Notes: generated from the letters alone by a model not told the origin. A stretch of DNA of 64,000 nt from Candidatus Saccharimonadota bacterium (GCA_016176605.1 JACOWW010000003.1:30138-94137), one strand, 5' to 3'; counted from the first letter of the stretch, positions 2-62,153 are shown. Program-made: numbers and translations.

Positions 2-472
2 AAATCTGCGGATGCCTACCACGATACAGCGCCCAGCGAAGATGGCGCCATACGGGCAATTGACCAAGCCCTGGCTAATGCTGGCCTGACTGCTGAAGAA
101 ATCCACGATCTGTTAATTGAAGGACATTGGACCGGCACCGGGGGTGATATCAACGAATTCCGATCAATTATTCAGCGATTTAAAAAGGACCAATTGGCTG
201 GAATGTCAGCAGTAAAAGTTGATACCGGCCATACTTTCGGGGCCGCCGGAGTATTAGCGGCGATTGCTGGCATTCATTCCATGAATACAAATACCGTTCG
301 TGGCTTTAGAACGATGAGCGATCAAAACCGCCACGCTGAAACGTTCGGTTGGCCCATCTTTAACGGTGCCGGCGCGCGGAAGGTCCGTAACGTCGGCATA
401 GTAATGGTTAATGCGTTTGGGTTTGGCGGCAAAAACCGAGTTGTCTTACTTGGCCCGGCGCGAAAGATTTAG
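2..472 (+). CDS. beta-ketoacyl-ACP synthase-like protein, C-terminal part (5' end outside window)
   Basis: Frame 2 is open from the window edge. Translation ADAYHDTAPSEDG..GHWTGTGGD..VDTGHTFGAAG..NAFGFGGKN resembles the KAS I/II C-terminal half, including both His regions and the terminal FGFGG motif. Confidence 0.6.
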   Translation, partial: KSADAYHDTAPSEDGAIRAIDQALANAGLTAEEIHDLLIEGHWTGTGGDINEFRSIIQRFKKDQLAGMSAVKVDTGHTFGAAGVLAAIAGIHSMNTNTVRGFRTMSDQNRHAETFGWPIFNGAGARKVRNVGIVMVNAFGFGGKNRVVLLGPARKI

Positions 473-1590
473 GTCTGTTGGTACTCTTCGCAGAGGCGGG
501 CCAAATATCGGAGATTATGAGTGGTTGCCAAGCTGCCGGCGAGGGGGTCGCCTACTTTGTATAAATGTCTCAGAAAGGCCCGGCTGTAGCCTGTTTTACA
601 GGTATGGCAATCACATTTACTATCTATAGGACCTCGGTCGTTTGCGTATTTTAGATTATTGAGATTTAACCTTTTGTCCCCTGTTATCCAAACCTGGCCG
701 TGGCGGCCGTTACGGGTTGGCAGGACGCAGTCGAATATGTCTATGCCCCGCTCTATGGCGTAGCGCATATCAGCTGGTTCGCCGACGCCCATCAGATAAC
801 GAGCACGGGCTGGGTCGTAAAAAGGCGCTAAGAAGTTGAGCATGTCGTACATCTCTTTACGCGTTTCGCCCACTGCCAGTCCACCGATAGCTATTCCATC
901 AACTTCTTGTGACTGGACAAATTCCAGGCTTTTTTTACGCAAATTTTTGTCCAATCCGCCCTGCACAATCCCAAATAGCAACGGCTTATTTCTAAGGGTC
1001 GTACCCTTAACCCCTTTAAGGGTACGACCCTTAAAGGAGTTTTTGGTCAGTTTTTTAAATTCGGTGATGCAACGGACCAGCCAGCGATGGGTGCGCTCCA
1101 TCGCCTCCTTACTACGGGTACGACCCGTAGGTGAAAGGCCTGTTACATCGTCAAAGGCCATGATAATATCAGAGCCCAGATCAAACTGAATCTGCATTGA
1201 TTCTTCAGGGGTTATTAGCACTTCTCCGCCGCTGGCCAAGTTTTTGAAGTAGACTCCCTCCTCTGTTACCTTACGAGCTTTTGCCAGCGAAAATACCTGG
1301 AAGCCTCCAGAATCTGTCAAAATCGGCCCTTGCCAGCCGCTAAAGGTGTGCAGGCCGCCCAGTTTTTTGATCACTTTTTCGCCTGGCTGCAGGTGTAAAT
1401 GGTAGGCGTTAGCCAGCAGAACCTGAGTTCCACTGTCGATAATTTGCGAGGGTTGGAGCCCTTTTACCGACCCGCGGCTGGCGCAGGGCATAAAAAACGG
1501 CGTTTTGACTGGGCCGCGGCGAGTTTTGAGAATTCCACTGCGATTGCCGTTTTTATATCTTTTTAACTCCTTAAAGTGAGATTTGGACAT
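469..1590 (-). CDS. tgt: tRNA-guanine transglycosylase (queuine tRNA-ribosyltransferase)
   Basis: 373-aa ORF with Tgt hallmarks: LANAYHL, SGGFQVFS, MAFDD, FGIVQGG, GGLAVGE, YLMGVGEP, DCVLPTRNGRHG, zinc site CDCHTC. Confidence 0.9.
   Translation of the reverse strand: MSKSHFKELKRYKNGNRSGILKTRRGPVKTPFFMPCASRGSVKGLQPSQIIDSGTQVLLANAYHLHLQPGEKVIKKLGGLHTFSGWQGPILTDSGGFQVFSLAKARKVTEEGVYFKNLASGGEVLITPEESMQIQFDLGSDIIMAFDDVTGLSPTGRTRSKEAMERTHRWLVRCITEFKKLTKNSFKGRTLKGVKGTTLRNKPLLFGIVQGGLDKNLRKKSLEFVQSQEVDGIAIGGLAVGETRKEMYDMLNFLAPFYDPARARYLMGVGEPADMRYAIERGIDIFDCVLPTRNGRHGQVWITGDKRLNLNNLKYANDRGPIDSKCDCHTCKTGYSRAFLRHLYKVGDPLAGSLATTHNLRYLARLCEEYQQT
993..1040. repeat. Palindromic element embedded in frame in tgt (17-bp arms TAAGGGTCGTACCCTTA / TAAGGGTACGACCCTTA, 7-nt spacer, then AAGGAG)
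   Basis: Read directly from the sequence. The same element occurs at 48627-48667 inside ychF. A related hairpin CTACGGGTACGACCCGTAG lies at 1112-1130. Confidence 0.8.
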
Positions 1591-4008: not shown

Positions 4009-4108
4009 CTATAAACCCCATGTTCACAGTTTTCGGTTTTCGGTTTTCTATGCGTTTTCAGTGATCTGTTTTCTGTTCTCAATGATAAATTGTAAACAGT
4101 AAACGCAC

Positions 4109-4138
4109 GGTGAATGGTGAATGGTGAACGGTGAATGG
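4109..4138. repeat. 7-nt tandem array (GGTGAAT)x4
   Basis: ggtgaatggtgaatggtgaacggtgaatgg, preceded by tgtaaacagtaaacg. (TTTTCGG)x2.7 lies at 4030-4048 in the same spacer. Confidence 0.9.
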
Positions 4139-10633: not shown

Positions 10634-11575
10634 ATGGGTTATGAAAATGCAGTTAGTCAGTTTCTGGAATATTTAGAGCTGGAGCAAAACCGCTCGCAAA
10701 AAACGATTGAGAATTATAGTCACTACCTGACCCGACTCAGTGATTTTGCCGGCGACATCAAGCTTAAAGACATTAACGAGCAACTAATCCGTAAATGGCG
10801 CCTTTGGCTAAACCGTTTAGGTACAAATACATCCGATGAACTGTCCAAAACAACCCAAAATTATCATTTAATCGCTCTGCGCAGTTTTTTACGTTTTTGT
10901 GCCAAGCGTGAACTGCCTGCCCTGGCGCCGGACAAGATTGAACTGGCGCGCACCAAACGGCCGCAGGTGACTTTTTTAAACCTTGAGGAAATCGAAAGAT
11001 TATTTGCCCAACCAGACACTACAAAATTAACGGGTATAAGAGACCGGGCAATTTTGGAGCTATTGTTTTCCAGCGGCCTGCGAGTTTCCGAACTGGTCGG
11101 GCTGGACCGTGATCATATTAATTTAAGGCGGCGCGAGTTTATGGTGCGCGGCAAAGGCCAAAAAGACCGGCCGATTTTTATCAGCCCGGAAGCGGCCGAG
11201 TGGATACAGCGCTACCTGGACAAGCGCCAAGATAATACCAAACCGCTATTTATCAGATACAGTGGCAGTAAAAAAGTCGATTTAAGCGGCAATTATCATC
11301 GTTTGACTGCCCGCAGCATGCAAAGGATGGTCGCCCGCTATGCCTTAGCTGCCGGAATCACTAAACACGTCAGCCCGCACACGATGCGCCACAGCATGGC
11401 AACCGACTTATTGATGAACGGGGCAGATCTTCGCTCAGTCCAAGCCATGCTTGGCCACTCCAACATCGCCACCACCCAAATCTACACCCATGTCACCGAC
11501 CCCCATCTTAAAGCAGTGCATGAGAAATTCCACCGGCGGGTACCGGCTGGTACCCGCCACCGCGCCAAGAAATAG
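10634..11575 (+). CDS. Tyrosine site-specific recombinase (XerC/XerD family)
   Basis: SAM-like N-domain. Catalytic region RVSELVGL...HTMRHSMATDLL...LGHSNIATTQIYTHV. TACAAT lies 6 nt upstream of the ATG. Confidence 0.85.
   Translation: MGYENAVSQFLEYLELEQNRSQKTIENYSHYLTRLSDFAGDIKLKDINEQLIRKWRLWLNRLGTNTSDELSKTTQNYHLIALRSFLRFCAKRELPALAPDKIELARTKRPQVTFLNLEEIERLFAQPDTTKLTGIRDRAILELLFSSGLRVSELVGLDRDHINLRRREFMVRGKGQKDRPIFISPEAAEWIQRYLDKRQDNTKPLFIRYSGSKKVDLSGNYHRLTARSMQRMVARYALAAGITKHVSPHTMRHSMATDLLMNGADLRSVQAMLGHSNIATTQIYTHVTDPHLKAVHEKFHRRVPAGTRHRAKK
11530..11563. repeat. 34-bp hairpin-forming repeat, copy 1 (inside the recombinase 3' end)
   Basis: CCACCGGCGGGTACCGGCTGGTACCCGCCACCGC. The 10-bp stem is GGCGGGTACC/GGTACCCGCC. 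33/34 identical to 11777-11810. Confidence 0.85.
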
Positions 11576-11593
11576 CAATCCAGCCGATGTATA

Positions 11594-11711
11594 ACAAAAA
11601 TACGCGATCGCATATTTTTGTGTCATATCGTAACTGAATGCATATCACGACAGTAAAATAAAAACAGATCAAATCGCAGTGTAACAAAAATCAGCGATCG
11701 CTGATTTTTGT
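11594..11711. repeat. Two 28-bp palindromes centred on GCGATCGC
   Basis: acaaaaatacGCGATCGCatatttttgt (11594-11621) and the perfect palindrome acaaaaatcaGCGATCGCtgatttttgt (11684-11711). Confidence 0.85.
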
Positions 11712-11776
11712 TATGCATGTTGTATATTGTATATGCATGTAGGGGTTAATTTTGTCAGGGCGGACATGAAAAAAAT

Positions 11777-11810
11777 CCACCGGCGGGTACCAGCTGGTAC
11801 CCGCCACCGC
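11777..11810. repeat. 34-bp hairpin-forming repeat, copy 2
   Basis: Still reads HRRVPAGTRHR in frame, as in the recombinase tail; the single difference is synonymous. Confidence 0.85.
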
Positions 11811-11818
11811 ATCAAAGA

Positions 11819-34895: not shown

Positions 34896-35000
34896 ACAAT
34901 TTTCAATTTTCAATGATTTATTATTGATCGTCGACCATTTGATAAATGAGAAATGAGAAATTAGTGGTAAATGGTAAATGGTAAATGGTAAATGGAATAA
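34896..35000. repeat. Heptad arrays flanking a central AT-rich core (CAATTTT x2.5 ... AAATGAG x2.5, TGGTAAA x4)
   Basis: Read directly in the pilB-pilT spacer. Confidence 0.85.
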
Positions 35001-36949: not shown

Positions 36950-37080
36950 TTAGCCATTATCCATTTACCATTTTCTGTGCATTTACCATTAGCCATTAAC
37001 CATTTGTTAACAGTAAACGGGTAACGCATGGTGAAGGGTGAATGGTGAAGGGTGAACGTTTTTTGAGCATTGAGCATTTG
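36950..37080. repeat. Composite spacer element: CCATTNN heptads, then GTTAACAGTAAACGGGTAACGCATGG, then (GGTGAAG/GGTGAAT)x4, then (GAGCATT)x2
   Basis: Read directly. The core GTAAACGGRTAACGCRTGGTGAAGGGTGAA recurs at 39004-39035, with a shorter form at 4097-4125. Confidence 0.85.
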
Positions 37081-38859: not shown

Positions 38860-38880
38860 ACACGCCTCCTTCGGAGGTAT

Positions 38881-39052
38881 TAACCATTTTCCATTTACTA
38901 TTTACCATACATTTACCATACATTTACCATTAGCCATTAGCCATATGTTAACGGTAAACCCAGCACTTAGCTTAAGTATCTTAGAGACTCGAGCTAAGTG
39001 CTGGGTAAACGGATAACGCGTGGTGAAGGGTGAAGGGTGAAGGGTGAAGAGT
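38881..39052. repeat. Composite spacer element: CCATTTN/TTTACCA heptads, central 15-bp inverted repeat, (GGTGAAG)x4
   Basis: Central arms ACCCAGCACTTAGCT (38958-38972) and AGCTAAGTGCTGGGT (38992-39006). GGTGAAG array at 39021-39050. Confidence 0.85.
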
Positions 39053-47935: not shown

Positions 47936-49090
47936 ATGTCGCTTCAAATAGGAATCATCGGCCTTCCTAACGTAGGTAAATCCACGCTTTTTAACGCGTT
48001 GACGGATGCGGACGCGTTGATTGCTAATTACCCTTTTGCCACTATTGAGCCAAACACTGGAATTGTTCCCATCCCGGATCCGCGCTTGCCGAAGCTGGCA
48101 GAAATTTATAAAACCCAAAAAATTATTCCTGCGACTGTCACTTTTGTCGACATTGCCGGCTTAGTGGCCGGCGCCAGTAAAGGCGAAGGCTTGGGCAACC
48201 AATTTTTAGCGCACATCCGAAGCACTAATGCCATTTGCCACGTGGTACGGGCCTTTGATGATCCTAATGTTGCCAGTGCAAAAAACCCCGACGCTGCGGT
48301 CGGGGCTCCGACCACCGATCTAGTAGTCGGTGCATCGGAGGATATAGAAATTGTCAACACGGAACTAGTCTTAGCCGATCTGCAAACAGTCGAAAAACGT
48401 CTGCCACGCCTGGAAAAAGAAGTTAAAGCCGATCCCAAACTCAAGCCCTTACTCGACGCCCTAAATGCCATCAACTCCCATCTTCAAACCAACTCACCCC
48501 TGCATAGTTCTCAAGTTCTGCAGAACATTAGAACAAGTGAGGTCCAATCGGCGCTGCTTGACAGTTTGCAGTTGCTGACGGCCAAGCCAGTCATTTATGT
48601 TTTTAATGTCGACGAAACGTTGCTGGAGGGTCGTACCCTTAGACCTAAGGGTACGACCCTAAAGGAGTTAACTGAGCTGGTTGCGCCATCCAGGGCCATA
48701 TTTATTTGCGCGAAACTAGAAAACGAACTGCGTGGAATGGGTGAAGCCGACCGCCAGGAACTGCTAGAAAGCTACGGCCAAAACGAGAGCGGCCTGATGC
48801 AGTTAATCCATGCGGCGTATGACATATTGAACTTGCAAAGTTTTTTGACGGCTGGTGAAAAGGAAGTGCGGGCCTGGACTATACCCAAAGGCACTACTGC
48901 CCCGCAAGCCGCCGGTGTTATACACAGCGATTTTGAACACGGCTTTATTGCCGCCCAAGTCGTCAACTACCAAGATTTAATAAAAGCCGGCTCATTAGCC
49001 GGCGCGCGGGCCGCCGGCAAAGTACGTGCCGAAGGCAAAACCTACGTTATGCAACCTGATGACGTGGTCGAGTTCCGTTTCAACGTCTAA
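47936..49090 (+). CDS. ychF: Ribosome-binding ATPase YchF (Obg-like)
   Basis: IGIIGLPNVGKSTLFNALT, FVDIAGLV.GAS.GEGLGNQFL, C-terminal TGS-like AAGVIHSDFEHGFIAAQV. Confidence 0.9.
   Translation: MSLQIGIIGLPNVGKSTLFNALTDADALIANYPFATIEPNTGIVPIPDPRLPKLAEIYKTQKIIPATVTFVDIAGLVAGASKGEGLGNQFLAHIRSTNAICHVVRAFDDPNVASAKNPDAAVGAPTTDLVVGASEDIEIVNTELVLADLQTVEKRLPRLEKEVKADPKLKPLLDALNAINSHLQTNSPLHSSQVLQNIRTSEVQSALLDSLQLLTAKPVIYVFNVDETLLEGRTLRPKGTTLKELTELVAPSRAIFICAKLENELRGMGEADRQELLESYGQNESGLMQLIHAAYDILNLQSFLTAGEKEVRAWTIPKGTTAPQAAGVIHSDFEHGFIAAQVVNYQDLIKAGSLAGARAAGKVRAEGKTYVMQPDDVVEFRFNV
48627..48667. repeat. Palindromic element embedded in frame in ychF (15-bp arms AGGGTCGTACCCTTA / TAAGGGTACGACCCT, 4-nt spacer, then AAAGGAG)
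   Basis: Same element as 993-1040. Translates to EGRTLRPKGTTLKE here. Confidence 0.8.
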
Positions 49091-52763: not shown

Positions 52764-52872
52764 TATTCGCTCCTTCCTTCGCCCGCAAAAGTTTTGGCAA
52801 AAAATTTCGGCGGGTCAGTCGCTCAAGCTGTAAGCTAAAAGTCCTTAGCTTTAAGCTTTGAGCTTTCAGCTC

Positions 52873-53523
52873 TTAGCTGTTATCTTTTATTCTACTACGT
52901 CGAGGCTTTTTAGGTTCCTCATCCTCGTCTCTATCACTGCGTCCCCGACGATACAGTCGGGGCCCCGACTCTCTATCTTCTTCATCTTCATCTGAGACGT
53001 CGGGGTTAGCCGCCACCCTAGCAGCTTTCTCCTTGGCCAGGGCTTCGGCTTTAGATTTAGCTTTCAGGTCCGGCTTGGTGATAAGAAAACGGATGATTTC
53101 ATCAGTGATATTGAAAGTCTGTTCGACCTTCTGCACACCTTCCGGTGGCATCTCCGCCGTATAAAAAACATAGACGGCGAAGTCGTTTTTGGCAATTGGA
53201 TACGCTAGCTTGCGCTTGCCCCAATTGTCGGTATTGGTAATCTTACCACCGTTATCGGTGATGATTTTTTCGACCTTGCTGGTGGCTTTTTCCAGATCAA
53301 TTTCCAGATCCGGATGGTATAACACCGCTATTTCATAGATTTGGCCCGAACTGCGCACCGCACTGGCCTGCTGGACGGCAGAGCCGCCGACTCCGCCCGT
53401 GCTTACAGGCACATTACCGCGTTGCCGGCTGCGGGGCTCATTCGTTGTACCATTTCGTACATCTTCATTACGCTCCTCACCGGCGCCTTGTACTGCACCA
53501 GTCTGCGTAGCTCGTGTATTCAT
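52873..53523 (-). CDS. rpsF: 30S ribosomal protein S6 with N- and C-terminal extensions
   Basis: Core YEIAVLYHPD...WGKRKLAYPI...AVYVFY. Start taken at the ATG at 53523, preceded by AAGGAGG. The ORF is open to 53592 but that part overlaps the promoter TTGACC-17-TATGTT. Confidence 0.8.
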   Translation of the reverse strand: MNTRATQTGAVQGAGEERNEDVRNGTTNEPRSRQRGNVPVSTGGVGGSAVQQASAVRSSGQIYEIAVLYHPDLEIDLEKATSKVEKIITDNGGKITNTDNWGKRKLAYPIAKNDFAVYVFYTAEMPPEGVQKVEQTFNITDEIIRFLITKPDLKAKSKAEALAKEKAARVAANPDVSDEDEEDRESGPRLYRRGRSDRDEDEEPKKPRRSRIKDNS

Positions 53524-55208: not shown

Positions 55209-55491
55209 TATCTTGTGCAGTATGTCAATTTCAATCTGTTGTTACCCGCCTGATATTAAGCGAGCTTCTATCTTTTTGAGGACATGTGAAGCCAAGGTTA
55301 ATGAGCGAGTCCTATGTTTCTTTGGAGCATGCGCAAACTACCCGATAGCGGATGATGTAAAACAGTCTGTCCATGGGTGCTACCGGATGTTTGACGAAGC
55401 CCCGACGATACCGTCGGGGCGAGGAGTTCCGGTGACAAAGACTGGTTTTATCATCAGACGCGTCGAGTAGTTGGAGCCGATCCAAAAAACA

Positions 55492-57666
55492 TTAGGGCGA
55501 GCGCTCTTCAGGGAAGTTTTCGTTGTAGACATCATCGCTGCTGTCACTGCCGGCTTCGCTACTTGAACCAAAGACTTGGTCTACGCTGCTAACCAAAACC
55601 TGGCGCGGGCGTGAACCTTCGGCCGGGCCGACAATGCCTTGTTCTTCCATCATATCTATGAGGCGTGAGGCCCGGCCGTAGCCAAGCCTAAGTTTACGCT
55701 GCAGCAGGCTGGTGCTGGCTTTGCCGCTATTGATCACTACCTCCACTGCTTCTTTCCAGGCCGCGTCGCTATCGCCGCTCTCGGCCGCCGATATCACCGC
55801 GCCCTTACCGGTTAACTGAACCGGCTGGCTGACAACTTCATCGTCATAAGTCGGTGGCCGCTGGGCCCGCAAAAAGTCACAAATTTTATTGGTTTCGGCA
55901 TCGGTTATGAGGGCGCCCTGCATACGCTTGGGCTTGGGATATTCCGGAATACTATAGAGCATATCACCGCGCCCCAGCAGTTTTTCGGCGCCGGCTTGAT
56001 CTATTATGGTGCGTGAATCTACTTGGCTGATAGTGGTAAAGGCGATGCGGCCGGGCACGTTGGCTTTAATTAAACCGGTAATAACATCTACGCTCGGCCG
56101 CTGGGTGGCAATTACCAAATGGATGCCGGCGGCGCGAGCTTTTTGGGCGATACGCACAACCAGCGCTTCCACGTCGCGGGCGGCCATCATCATCAGGTCT
56201 GCCAGCTCATCAATAACAATTACGACGTAGGGCATACCCTCTTCTTTTTTGACCTGGTTATATTCGGCTATGTTACGTCGGCCAATTTCGGCGAAGGCTT
56301 TAAGCCGGCGTTCCATTTCGGCGACTGCCCACTTAAGGGCGCTAATGCATTTTTCCGGCTCGTGGATAACCGGCGCCAGCAGGTGCGGAATATCTTTGTA
56401 AAGGTTCATTTCCACTTGCTTGGGATCAACCAGGATTAACTTAAGGTCTGACGGACTGTTTCTATAAAGCAAGCTGGTTAGCAGCGTGTTGATCATCACG
56501 CTTTTACCCGAGCCGGTCTGGCCGGCAATAAGTAAGTGCGGCAGGCGCTCCAAGTCGCCGACAATCGGTGTGCCGGAAATGTCTTTACCAATGGCAATGC
56601 CCAGCGGACTTTTTACAGCCTGCCATTCGCCGCTGCTTAAAATCCCATAAGCCGAAACGGTAGCCGCTTTGACATTCGGCACTTCTATGCCAACGGCCCG
56701 CTTACCGGGAATTGGCGCTTCCATGCGGATAGTGTCGGCCGCCAGATCCAGCGCCAGGTTGTTTTCCAGCGTTGTCAGGCGCGACAGCTTTACACCGTTG
56801 GGCGGCTTCAGCGTATATTGCGTTACGCGCGGGCCGACGTTGGCGCCTTCGACCGAAACATCAATATTAAAATTAGCGAACGTCTCTTTAATGACCTCAG
56901 CGTTGCCCTGCACATCTCCGGCGTCGGCCTTGTCCTGCTTGTCATCCAGCAGGCTAAGCGGCGGGAACTGCCAATCGGGATCGCTGGCGGTAGTCAGGGC
57001 GGCGTGGTCTTGCTCCGGCGCCAGTTTTTGGGCAGTGTTGCGCCAAGACGCCATGCGGGCTGAAGAATGATGTTCCACAGGTACGCCTTCGTGTAATTGG
57101 AAGGTGGGATTCATTTTGCCCTTAAGAGCGGCCAGATCTTCTACACCTTTGCCTTCGCCTTCTGGTTTTTCGCGCTTAAATAGTTCCAGCAACTTAAGCA
57201 GTGAGCGCGGGTCAATGGCAAAGGTAAATAGCAGTGCAAAAAGTGTTAGTACAAAAAAGACCAAGGACGACAAAAAATCGCCCATGGCGCCGCTAAGCGC
57301 ATCGCCCACAGCCTGCCCGACGTGGCCGCCGTGAGTAAAAGCCGTGTGCATCCAGCCGGCAAAAAAGGTCAAAAGCCCCAACACGCCAAGCATTTTGGGC
57401 AACGGGATTTGCTGATCTTCGGTCAAAAACTTCAACGAACCAAGATAAATCAAGGCAAAAGGTGCTACGATAGCGGCTATCCCAAAAGCCCACCAGCCAC
57501 CATCCCACATATCGCGCGGAATGGGGGCGTTTATAAAGGCACCAAAACCAAGTACGATACCGCCAACAATTAAAAGAACGGCGCCGACGCCGCGCCAAAA
57601 GTTAGACGAAGATTCAATTTTTTTGGAGTTTTTGGCCGGACGCCCCGGCTTTTTACGTCTTGCCAT
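55492..57666 (-). CDS. ftsK: DNA translocase FtsK/SpoIIIE
   Basis: N-terminal TM segments. AGQTGSGKSVMINTLL Walker A, VIVIDELADLMM Walker B, C-terminal winged-helix gamma domain (LLQRKLRLGYGRASRLID). Confidence 0.9.
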   Translation of the reverse strand: MARRKKPGRPAKNSKKIESSSNFWRGVGAVLLIVGGIVLGFGAFINAPIPRDMWDGGWWAFGIAAIVAPFALIYLGSLKFLTEDQQIPLPKMLGVLGLLTFFAGWMHTAFTHGGHVGQAVGDALSGAMGDFLSSLVFFVLTLFALLFTFAIDPRSLLKLLELFKREKPEGEGKGVEDLAALKGKMNPTFQLHEGVPVEHHSSARMASWRNTAQKLAPEQDHAALTTASDPDWQFPPLSLLDDKQDKADAGDVQGNAEVIKETFANFNIDVSVEGANVGPRVTQYTLKPPNGVKLSRLTTLENNLALDLAADTIRMEAPIPGKRAVGIEVPNVKAATVSAYGILSSGEWQAVKSPLGIAIGKDISGTPIVGDLERLPHLLIAGQTGSGKSVMINTLLTSLLYRNSPSDLKLILVDPKQVEMNLYKDIPHLLAPVIHEPEKCISALKWAVAEMERRLKAFAEIGRRNIAEYNQVKKEEGMPYVVIVIDELADLMMMAARDVEALVVRIAQKARAAGIHLVIATQRPSVDVITGLIKANVPGRIAFTTISQVDSRTIIDQAGAEKLLGRGDMLYSIPEYPKPKRMQGALITDAETNKICDFLRAQRPPTYDDEVVSQPVQLTGKGAVISAAESGDSDAAWKEAVEVVINSGKASTSLLQRKLRLGYGRASRLIDMMEEQGIVGPAEGSRPRQVLVSSVDQVFGSSSEAGSDSSDDVYNENFPEERSP

Positions 57667-61256: not shown

Positions 61257-61859
61257 CTAGCTTAGTGTTTTTATAATTTTGGCTTCTTGATTAATTTTCT
61301 TTAAAATAGCTGGGATTTTCATAAAATCGTCAATTAATGTCTGGCGCATGCTTCCGTTGTATAAGGCAGCTGCGGGGTGGAAGAGCGGAAGGTAGACTTG
61401 CCCTTGGTATCTTTTTGGCTGACCGTGGCATTTACTTATTTGCAGGCCCGGCAAGAAGCATTCCATACTATGACGGCCAAGAGTCACCACGATTTTTGGC
61501 TTGATGGCTTCCAGCTGGGCGCGCAAAAATGGTAAAAAGGTAGCTTTCTCGTCCGGGTACGGGTCGCGATTATCTGGAGGGCGGTATTTAACAATATTGG
61601 TGATATAAACATCCTTCCTTTTCAGCCCGATCATAGCCAGCATTTCATTCAAAAACTGGCCGGCGGCGCCGACGAATGGCAGTCCTTGCTCATCTTCACT
61701 CTTACCCGGCGCCTCACCTATAAAAACCAGCTCCGCTTTGGCGCTGCCATCGCCAAACACTAATTGTATTGCGCTAGCAGCTAGTTCCGGACAAATGTTT
61801 TGCTTCAAAATCTCAGCCTTGATTTTCTTTAGTTGTGCTTCTTTTTTACTCATTCTCAC
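61257..61859 (-). CDS. Family-4 uracil-DNA glycosylase
   Basis: FIGEAPGKSEDEQGLPFVGAAGQFL and HPAAALY. Confidence 0.85.
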   Translation of the reverse strand: MRMSKKEAQLKKIKAEILKQNICPELAASAIQLVFGDGSAKAELVFIGEAPGKSEDEQGLPFVGAAGQFLNEMLAMIGLKRKDVYITNIVKYRPPDNRDPYPDEKATFLPFLRAQLEAIKPKIVVTLGRHSMECFLPGLQISKCHGQPKRYQGQVYLPLFHPAAALYNGSMRQTLIDDFMKIPAILKKINQEAKIIKTLS

Positions 61860-61916
61860 CCCCTAGAGGTCCGACCTTGGAAAAAGCAAAGAGATTTTAT
61901 GCAAAATCACCAGATT

Positions 61917-62153
61917 TTACCTACCTTTTTCCAAGGTCGGACCTCTTTTTAGTACACGGAACGTGCTTTTGATTCCCCACACCAGGAAAATGATTGCCAG
62001 AGCGTATTCCAGCAGGCTGCCTGAGTCAATCGCCAAGCTGGCAAAACCGTAAGCAATACCAAGGAAAATTAAGGCCATAGTGACTCTCACCCACCGCTTA
62101 TTAAGTAACCTCTGTTCGTCTTTCCTAGCCATTTTTACCTTCTTCGCCCGCAA
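61917..62153 (-). CDS. Small membrane protein (78 aa, 2 TM segments)
   Basis: ORF with a GAAGG SD and two hydrophobic helices. Confidence 0.4.
   Translation of the reverse strand: MRAKKVKMARKDEQRLLNKRWVRVTMALIFLGIAYGFASLAIDSGSLLEYALAIIFLVWGIKSTFRVLKRGPTLEKGR

Follow-up and report, generated by a model that had tools for sequence, protein, structure and literature searches.

We analysed a 64,000-nt stretch of a Candidatus Saccharimonadota genome (JACOWW010000003.1, positions 30138-94137; hereafter the window) and found that a very short palindromic repeat lies inside the coding sequences of two unrelated genes, tgt and ychF. The repeat is dispersed over different genes, is patchily distributed among orthologues, is translated in several frames, is conserved at the level of DNA and has polyphyletic carriers. 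We consider it reasonably probable that this element is a short, non-coding and non-autonomous repeat of the REP/REPIN type (repetitive extragenic palindromic sequences and their dimers) which behaves like the Rickettsia palindromic elements (RPEs) and survives in permissive loops of proteins. The copies in the window and their host genes are the following:

469..1590, minus strand: host gene tgt, queuine tRNA-ribosyltransferase; full-length, intact open reading frame (ORF) of 373 aa
993..1037: tgt copy, an inverted doublet of the hairpin monomer GGGT-CGT-ACCC; monomers at 993-1009 and 1017-1033, spacer ACCCCTT
1112..1130: single monomer CTACGGGTACGACCCGTAG in tgt; 8-bp stem, 3-nt loop, read PTGRTRS
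47936..49090, plus strand: host gene ychF, ribosome-binding ATPase; intact, E=3e-100 to E. coli YchF
48627..48660: ychF copy, an inverted doublet built of the same monomer, AGGGTCGTACCCTTA-GACC-TAAGGGTACGACCCT; arms of 15 nt, followed by AAAGGAG

The monomer is a hairpin of ~17 nt, (TA)AGGGT-CGT-ACCCT(TA), with a core stem of 5-7 bp and a loop of 3 nt. The second arm repeats the first as its reverse complement, loop included, so that this loop reads ACG; the unit is thus an inverted doublet of the monomer, and it can fold either as two small hairpins or as a single stem of 14-18 bp. Across 12 distinct loci the arms measured 13-18 nt and the central loops 1-12 nt; the spacer between the monomers ranges from 1 to 13 nt. 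The tgt palindrome at 993-1040 has exactly the sequence that a preliminary description of this DNA had given (TAAGGGTCGTACCCTTA-ACCCCTT-TAAGGGTACGACCCTTA-AAGGAG). Its arms are 18 nt long around a loop of 5 nt, and the stem of its second monomer reaches 11 bp (1013-1037).

The motif is more frequent than expected by chance, since its 11-mer GGGTCGTACCC was found five times without mismatch, at three places in the two unrelated genes, and six times when one mismatch was allowed; the chance expectation is 0.56 (up to one mismatch) and none of 100 shuffled sequences reached six. The doublets were predicted to fold at -19.4 and -16.8 kcal/mol as single-stranded DNA (z = -6.7 and -6.2) and at -32.4 and -29.9 kcal/mol as mRNA, where the hairpins have a perfect stem of 15-20 bp; all z-scores, for DNA and mRNA, lie between -5.9 and -7.6. 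Nine intragenic hairpins were seen in the window for 2.8 expected, and five of these nine belong to the elements described in this study. Apart from them, intragenic hairpins occur at chance level, which argues for specific elements rather than a general sequence bias. Reading the core off the sequence in all six frames revealed no stop codon; a stop can arise only through the flanking TAA, in one frame. We found no match to Rfam at gathering thresholds.

Both host proteins align end to end with solved structures except for gaps at the inserts, and their conserved motifs are intact. The Tgt ORF matches solved Tgt structures with E=6e-95, is 100% identical to a Tgt annotated at NCBI as 'Candidatus Saccharibacteria' (MBI2009249.1), and retains the catalytic motifs LTDSGGFQ, AFDD and GVGEP as well as the zinc motif CDCHTC..H. 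On the gene strand the doublet reads FKGRTLKGVKGTTL (Tgt residues ~186-199), and the ORF reads KNSFKGRTLKGVKGTTLRNK immediately ahead of PLLFGIVQGG. A palindrome inside tgt and ahead of FGIVQGG is what the preliminary description had reported, and both the sequence and the 373-aa ORF bear this out, as they do the TGRTRS peptide that it had assigned to the hairpin at 1112-1130. In ychF, the doublet reads EGRTLRPKGTTLKE on the plus strand, yielding GRTLRPKGTTL directly behind the FNVDE (G4) motif. The same DNA had been claimed there over 48627-48667; the doublet and its GRTL..KGTTL reading stand, but the AAAGGAG that follows probably does not belong to the conserved element: the AAG GAG codons of ychF (K-E) are also present in orthologues without the doublet, and in tgt AAAGG does no more than bring the second monomer's stem to 11 bp. 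Identical versions of the tgt and ychF proteins were assembled independently from three and five sequencing runs, respectively, and the inserts are therefore not an assembly artefact.

A separate small hairpin with a GT-ACG-AC centre like that of the element, ATGTACGACAT, lies at 845-855 in tgt. Most orthologues have this hairpin, which encodes the conserved M-Y-D-M of the EMYDML motif of Tgt. The likeness is probably coincidental and due to the conserved peptide, yet it constitutes native microhomology to the element within tgt.

Comparison with orthologues indicated that the inserted segments are absent from most Tgt and YchF proteins. Across 31 orthologues from Saccharimonadia (67-78% identical), Tgt mostly reads KKLTK, five residues, xR and PLLFGI; relative to most of these, the Tgt of the window has 12 extra residues (the KGRTL..KGTTL segment), and E. 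coli-type Tgt structures show an 18-residue gap at the insertion point. The YchF peptide GRTLxxKGTTL was found only in the window, in its closest relatives P0122 and P0124 and in one distant lineage; the other YchF orthologues are 6 aa shorter at this site. No orthologue without the palindrome was found to carry the same peptide. The Tgt insert sits in an alpha-to-beta connection and that of YchF in the loop following G4, and both positions are gapped in solved homologues. AlphaFold models of the two proteins were built from alignments of 32 sequences and, being poor overall (mean predicted local distance difference test, pLDDT, of 56 for Tgt and 60 for YchF), were used only to call the inserts low-confidence loops: pLDDT was below 50 at YchF 234-240 and at Tgt 187-200, the stretch that leads from a long helix to the PLLFGI strand.

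Related or other uncultured genomes proved to contain further copies, located in lepA, valS, tgt, ychF and two more genes. A loose scan of genome contigs for GGGTCGTACCC-N(3-30)-GGGTACGACCC returned mostly REP-like hairpins of Duganella and Janthinobacterium, and among the matches listed only one locus was relevant, in the lepA of the Saccharibacteria metagenome-assembled genome JACPKG01 (L038, GC content of 47%). This doublet, ATAGGGTCGTACCCTAT-gacggtc-ATAGGGTACGACCCTTAG, is translated in another frame, YRVVPYDGHRVRPL (RVVP/RVRP). The L038 LepA aligns end to end with a solved structure apart from a gap at the insert, where E. coli LepA has an 11-residue gap. A stricter scan of metagenomes yielded 15 loci, at least 11 of which lie inside ORFs. 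These included ychF doublets in two further lineages (L128/L130 and L136/L138), one of them with a GC content of 56%, and a tgt doublet in L132, as well as doublets inside the anticodon-binding domain of valS (L134), in a GT2 glycosyltransferase of an organism with 33% GC (L133/L137) and in an LTD-domain protein of an organism with ~40% GC (L139/L141). In addition, the tgt of L124 (protein P0004) has the doublet at the same site as in the window. The frames in use are GRTL/KGTTL, RVVP/RVRP in lepA and GSYP/RVRP (GSYP..RVRP) in the glycosyltransferase. A scan of viral contigs gave no match.

In two of these doublets the spacer itself forms an additional, third mini-hairpin built alike: GGGT-TGT-ACCC in valS (L134, 2435-2470) and AAGT-CGT-ACTT in the gene of the LTD-domain protein (L139, 666-704). 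These units are therefore triplets, which suggests that the GT-NGT-AC centre is the conserved feature.

The core pair GGGTCGTACCC...GGGTACGACCC also forms abundant REP-like families in unrelated phyla (genome-contig loci L001-L120, among the matches listed). Duganella and Janthinobacterium carry dozens of copies per genome with a spacer of 3-6 nt, and the pair is also present in Elusimicrobia, Bacillota, Streptomyces and Acidimicrobiales. Distinct families were seen in Acidobacteria gp6 (gaaaaagGGGTCGTACCCctttttc) and in Hydrocarboniphaga (tgtaggagcGGGTCGTACCCgcgactg), the latter similar to the GTAG REPs of Pseudomonas. The copies in unrelated phyla look extragenic where checked. ORFs of high-GC phyla that bear the core were considered as real hosts and rejected as mostly spurious; their Pfam domains lie on one side only, and these copies are therefore ordinary extragenic REPs.

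The element is conserved at the level of DNA, not of protein. Between the window and the orthologues compared, identical residues share the same codon in only 46-54% of cases, and the 15-nt arms are nevertheless identical among the window, L128, L124 and L132; by our own arithmetic, eight core codons would match with a probability of about 0.46^8 ~ 0.002. Because the arms are identical despite diverged codons and several frames are in use, selection on the peptide is excluded. A neighbour-joining tree of Tgt, in which the insert region was masked, placed the three doublet carriers as non-sisters with empty nearest relatives; for example, the tgt of carrier L132 and that of empty L146 share 83% nucleotide identity. 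Similarly, the YchF of carrier L128 is 70% identical to that of the window at the amino acid level, as against 82%, 80% and 77% for the non-carriers L143, L145 and L144. The carriers thus appear polyphyletic in these comparisons, and such a pattern requires repeated gains, or losses, at a single site.

These observations can be accommodated if copies of the repeat have spread to, or have been written into, many sites in Saccharibacteria and in some other uncultured bacteria with small genomes. The genomes are ~88% coding, and the copies that persist would be those that keep the reading frame in loops tolerant of extra residues. Since the core lacks stops and has dyad symmetry, either orientation gives similar peptides, and the host protein gains 6-12 loop residues, a peptide that would be selectively neutral. 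Mobility would most plausibly involve a process specific to hairpins in single-stranded DNA. One candidate is an IS200-like HUH transposase of the RAYT type (REP-associated tyrosine transposase) acting in trans; another is short-patch template switching or gene conversion, in which another copy may serve as template and an existing hairpin or microhomology as landing site. The latter route would account for the repeated use of the same loops and for copies that replace sequence.

Several results weigh against this interpretation. No RAYT-like ORF was detected by phmmer with the E. coli RAYT (PDB 4ER8) among 5,797 ORFs of the window and the fetched loci, which represent a small part of each genome, and Pfam scans of ten unassigned ORFs of the window revealed no transposase candidate. 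No GTAG or CGTC tag was found at the ends of the element in the aligned flanks, which show only (T)(A)A...T(T)(A) and sometimes TTAG; GTAG occurs solely within the stem of the singlet at 1112-1130. There is also no target-site duplication or direct repeat at the borders. The density is low, with two doublets and one singlet in 64 kb and no intergenic copy of this family there, the opposite of classical REPs. Furthermore, filled alleles are longer than empty ones by 7, 8 or 12 codons and differ from them also in their flanks, and both the tgt singlet and the first ychF hairpin have the same number of codons as their orthologues, which in the case of the singlet read x-[D/A]-R-x-R-T. Simple cut-or-copy-and-paste insertion fails to account for these length-neutral copies and differing flanks; some copies therefore look like short templated replacements. 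In ychF, the gain is of only ~6 aa, the first hairpin having taken the place of an older one at these codons. Finally, other lineages bear different hairpins at the same sites. At the tgt site, L126 has TTTAAGGGT-GGC-ACCCTTAAA (FKGGTLK) and L127 has TGTGATAGGT-TTA-ACCTATCACA (also written GTGATAGGT-TTA-ACCTATCAC), whose peptide SVIGLTYH is common to three non-sister Tgt proteins. The ychF site is occupied by TTGCAGGGA-CAA-TCCCTGCAA in L143 and, in L144, by the variant TTGCAAGGC-CAG-GCTTTGCAA, with two compensatory changes and one G.T pair. In a hand-picked, biased and thus merely illustrative sample of 11 such 21-nt segments, 92% of cells pair and seven of nine pairs have changed on both sides. 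It is possible that structure at these tgt and ychF codons is maintained for function.

Such replacements raise the question of whether the hairpins form and persist in place, quasi-palindromes being perfected by intramolecular template switching and doublets arising by strand-switch duplication, with no movement between loci. The tgt singlet and the first ychF hairpin, which arose without length change, the filled and empty alleles that are not cleanly collinear, the other hairpins with compensatory changes at the same codons in L143, L144, L126 and L127, and the doublet being an exact inverted copy of the monomer, loop included, are all consistent with an in-place origin. We nevertheless consider it unlikely, as an identical monomer of 15-17 nt with an asymmetric CGT loop is found in at least six unrelated genes and in organisms with GC contents from 33% to 56%, and identical arms are shared between orthologues with near-saturated synonymous sites. 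The common monomer argues against formation in place as the sole mechanism, although it may act jointly with the spread of a REP-like repeat. A related view, to which we also give a low probability, is that the hairpins, instead of being passively tolerated, are products of hairpin-directed writing that recognises the GT-CGT-AC core and overwrites hairpins in place, through a single-strand DNA enzyme or replication-coupled conversion; alternatively, as mRNA hairpins, they could form a post-transcriptional regulon of translation-factor genes in bacteria of the candidate phyla radiation (CPR). Overwriting in place would explain the re-used loops, the length-neutral replacements and a core that is perfect from 33% to 56% GC, and the same 11-nt core is found in the REP-like families of Oxalobacteraceae, Acidobacteria, Hydrocarboniphaga and others (among the matches listed). 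Selection on nucleic acid could also maintain the hairpins as functional cis-elements, either as mRNA structures (a site for RNase III or an RNA-binding protein, or a ribosome pause) or as DNA sites of a dimeric protein. This would fit the perfect conservation of core DNA across diverged orthologues, the very stable mRNA hairpins (~-30 kcal/mol, perfect stem of 15-20 bp), the compensatory changes and G.U pair at the same sites in other lineages, the nearly exclusive intragenic location of the family in the sequence examined and the fact that four of the six identified hosts (tgt, ychF, lepA and valS) act in translation. However, the distribution is patchy even in close relatives and most orthologues lack any hairpin, the spacer varies from 1 to 13 nt, the positions within genes follow no common logic, the glycosyltransferase and the LTD-domain protein are unrelated to translation, and Rfam offered no match. 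A bias towards housekeeping hosts is moreover expected, because conserved genes are those that are repeatedly recovered from metagenomes. We therefore regard a functional cis-element as quite unlikely.

Another explanation for the distribution is homologous recombination: Saccharibacteria that take up DNA might exchange segments of tgt and ychF, such that one insertion per gene was subsequently passed around. The polyphyly of carriers in the Tgt tree points in this direction, as does the upstream sequence GAA TTC AAC CGC CT (EFNRL) that hairpin-bearing, non-sister tgt alleles have in common, where most empty alleles read EFKKLTK; in addition, the window encodes a type IV pilus and a competence-like gene set. 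This scenario leaves the copies in other genes or other frames unexplained, the carriers differ in their spacers and flanks, and a single-gene neighbour-joining tree is weak evidence, so that we find it very unlikely. Least credible are a DNA uptake signal or short motif accumulating by point mutation under molecular drive, and an artefact of assembly or amplification, both of which we judge highly improbable. The organisms probably depend on DNA uptake and some copies arose without length change. Known uptake sequences (USS/DUS), however, occur roughly once per kb, in contrast to five cores in the 64 kb of the window (~0.08 per kb), with just one more site when one mismatch is allowed, and the copies have in common 15-17 nt and a doublet architecture. 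Identical independent assemblies from several runs and studies exclude an artefact. We also rejected excision footprints of transposons, which would differ at each locus; att sites of integrases, since the copies are in frame in the middle of genes; mimicry of the Tgt substrate, the loops not being UGU in a 7-nt loop; and intrinsic terminators, as there is no run of T.

The repeat of the REP/REPIN type that we favour can be set against several known systems. The RPEs were reportedly described by Ogata et al. in 2000, and RPE-1 measures ~100-150 bp. Like the RPEs, the element is a palindromic repeat lying in frame within conserved, apparently functional and unrelated genes, which gain a short peptide and can accommodate it in either orientation. 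In contrast to them, it is a monomer of 17 nt or a doublet of 32-45 nt without a tag, it is found in CPR bacteria and several of its copies replace sequence. Its sequence looks unrelated to the RPE families, from which it is set apart by their published descriptions: RPE-4 and RPE-6 are CGTC-tagged REPs with stems of 8-9 bp and loops of 4-5 nt (PMC3733652), whereas the element has a core stem of 5-7 bp, a 3-nt loop and neither a CGTC nor a CCA tail. Hence the RPE-like behaviour that the preliminary description had proposed is supported, each of the checks it suggested having turned out in favour, but membership in an RPE family and a clean insertion are not. That description knew of no such report for CPR-type genomes; our literature search, in an incomplete library, found none either, and querying the literature with the core sequence gave nothing but primers.

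Classical REPs lie mostly outside genes, occur in hundreds of copies per genome and have a conserved, unpaired GTAG or CGTC tag at one end and a cognate RAYT, a Y1 HUH transposase whose gene the repeats often flank; the monomer is a hairpin of 20-40 nt, and two monomers in inverted orientation, a short spacer apart, fold as one long hairpin (PMC3116915, PMC3337134, PMC3733652). Intragenic REPs, including dimers that code for 20-30 aa, are likewise on record from several phyla, Opitutus, Rickettsia and Thauera being among the carriers (PMC3733652). The element shares with REPs and REPINs the hairpin monomer, the inverted dimers that form a single long stem-loop, singlets that resemble remnants and the presence of several families per genome. 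It differs in being mostly intragenic and of low density, and in having no tag and no RAYT in the window and fetched loci. In size and architecture it thus appears nearer to REP dimers (REPINs) than to RPEs, yet it has the defining features of neither the REP nor the RPE families. Palindromic amphipathic repeat coding elements (PARCELs) are similar in being coding DNA with dyad symmetry, a punctate phylogenetic distribution and inferred mobility within and between genomes, but these are tandem units of 25 residues that build surface or membrane proteins of unknown function, in contrast to single short inserts in housekeeping enzymes. Bacterial MITEs (miniature transposable elements with inverted repeats) such as Correia or Nezha are likewise small non-autonomous repeats, at times found in frame in genes, but they measure 70-300 bp and have terminal inverted repeats and target-site duplications (PMC10969869); the element, of 32-45 nt and without a direct repeat at its borders, has none of these MITE features. 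This kind of element is already known; what is new is the group of hosts, how small the element is, its preference for sites within genes and the way in which copies converge on the same positions.

If confirmed, these results would place CPR bacteria/Saccharibacteria alongside Rickettsia and the few other lineages in which essential genes have had short selfish palindromes written into them and translate these. Alignments of the marker proteins Tgt, YchF, LepA, ValRS and S6, on which CPR phylogeny and annotation draw, are inflated and distorted by inserts of this kind. Genomes of ~1 Mb with little intergenic space are also a natural experiment on the survival of repeats in extremely compact DNA, and the repeated hits on the same loops, together with the replacement-type copies, give a handle on the mechanism by which REP-like sequences spread.

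We further identified a second palindrome family, CCCCGACG-N-CGTCGGGG, with three copies in the window for 0.02 expected:

48281..48316: in frame in ychF, 12-aa insert KNPDAAVGAPTT
52943..52963: CCCCGACGATACAGTCGGGGC, in frame in rpsF, within the acidic tail at the C-terminus, minus-strand reading SGPRLYRRGR
55399..55420: GCCCCGACGATACCGTCGGGGC, intergenic, ~70 nt downstream of an FtsK-like ORF (55492..57666, minus strand)

That this family has both intragenic copies and an intergenic one speaks for the REP/REPIN reading. The ychF copy contains the hairpin CCCCGAC-GCTGCG-GTCGGGG (48286-48306), which is adjoined by a second, imperfect hairpin. The closest orthologues, P0122 and P0124, lack the insert; P0123 and P0125-7 have it, and its 18 codons are identical between the window and L145. 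In rpsF, the Ribosomal_S6 domain spans residues 86-173 of the ORF, and the orthologue in L143 is without the copy.

Further palindromes and coding inserts were also observed. Large imperfect palindromes of ~110-170 bp lie in intergenic regions around the pilus genes (36950-37056, 38880-39048, 34949-34992 and 4092-4135); their left arms consist of CCATT(A/T)(A/G)-type units, whereas GGTGAA(G/T) or GGTAAAT units make up the right arms. A sequence of ~126 nt that closely resembles them lies in frame in the L038 lepA (2056-2181; VNHSPLTVHHALTIGHDPLTEENGKRITDNAWKTENGKGKTD, residues 80-121), where E. coli LepA has no counterpart; it is a second, RPE-1-sized case of the same phenomenon. Several non-sister Tgt proteins of Saccharimonadia have in common a large in-frame insert of ~40 aa (DPGEIDF..SGISRGLPRGTSPAANGKAGSTGV) ahead of the CDC zinc motif, which contains a 17-nt inverted repeat (L126, 1877-1912), and non-sister Tgt proteins likewise share an insert of ~70 aa (HKPCTCPGKTGKARLGRASRPISG...CKTCGGGG) behind GRHGxVWI. 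Both are probably further mobile coding inserts. The YchF protein P0124 (L136/L138) has an 11-aa insert, SSFAKASEGQG, within the otherwise invariant LTAGEK|EVRAWT (alignment columns ~390-400). A palindrome AGCTTTGC.AAAGCT lying in frame would yield just such a peptide, S-F-A-K-A, and AGCTTT-type repeats are also found in intergenic regions of the window (31084 and 52826-52880).

Two other sets of repeats were noticed in the window. Two direct repeats of 44 nt, 247 bp apart (11525-11568 and 11772-11815), each hold a 24-nt palindrome, GGCGGGTACC-NNNN-GGTACCCGCC, and flank two more palindromes centred on GCGATCGC (11587-11621 and 11684-11718); the region has on one side a XerC/D-like recombinase ORF, the end of which runs with its last codons into the first repeat, and on the other a PIN-domain ORF. 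Finally, a perfect 22-nt inverted repeat, AGAGGTCCGACCTTGGAAAAAG / CTTTTTCCAAGGTCGGACCTCT, with arms 38 nt apart (61865-61946), lies just upstream of a uracil-DNA-glycosylase-like ORF (61257..61859, minus strand), its right arm overlapping a doubtful ORF of 78 aa. Each of its arms contains an AGGT-CCG-ACCT mini-hairpin that is built like the core of the element in tgt and ychF.

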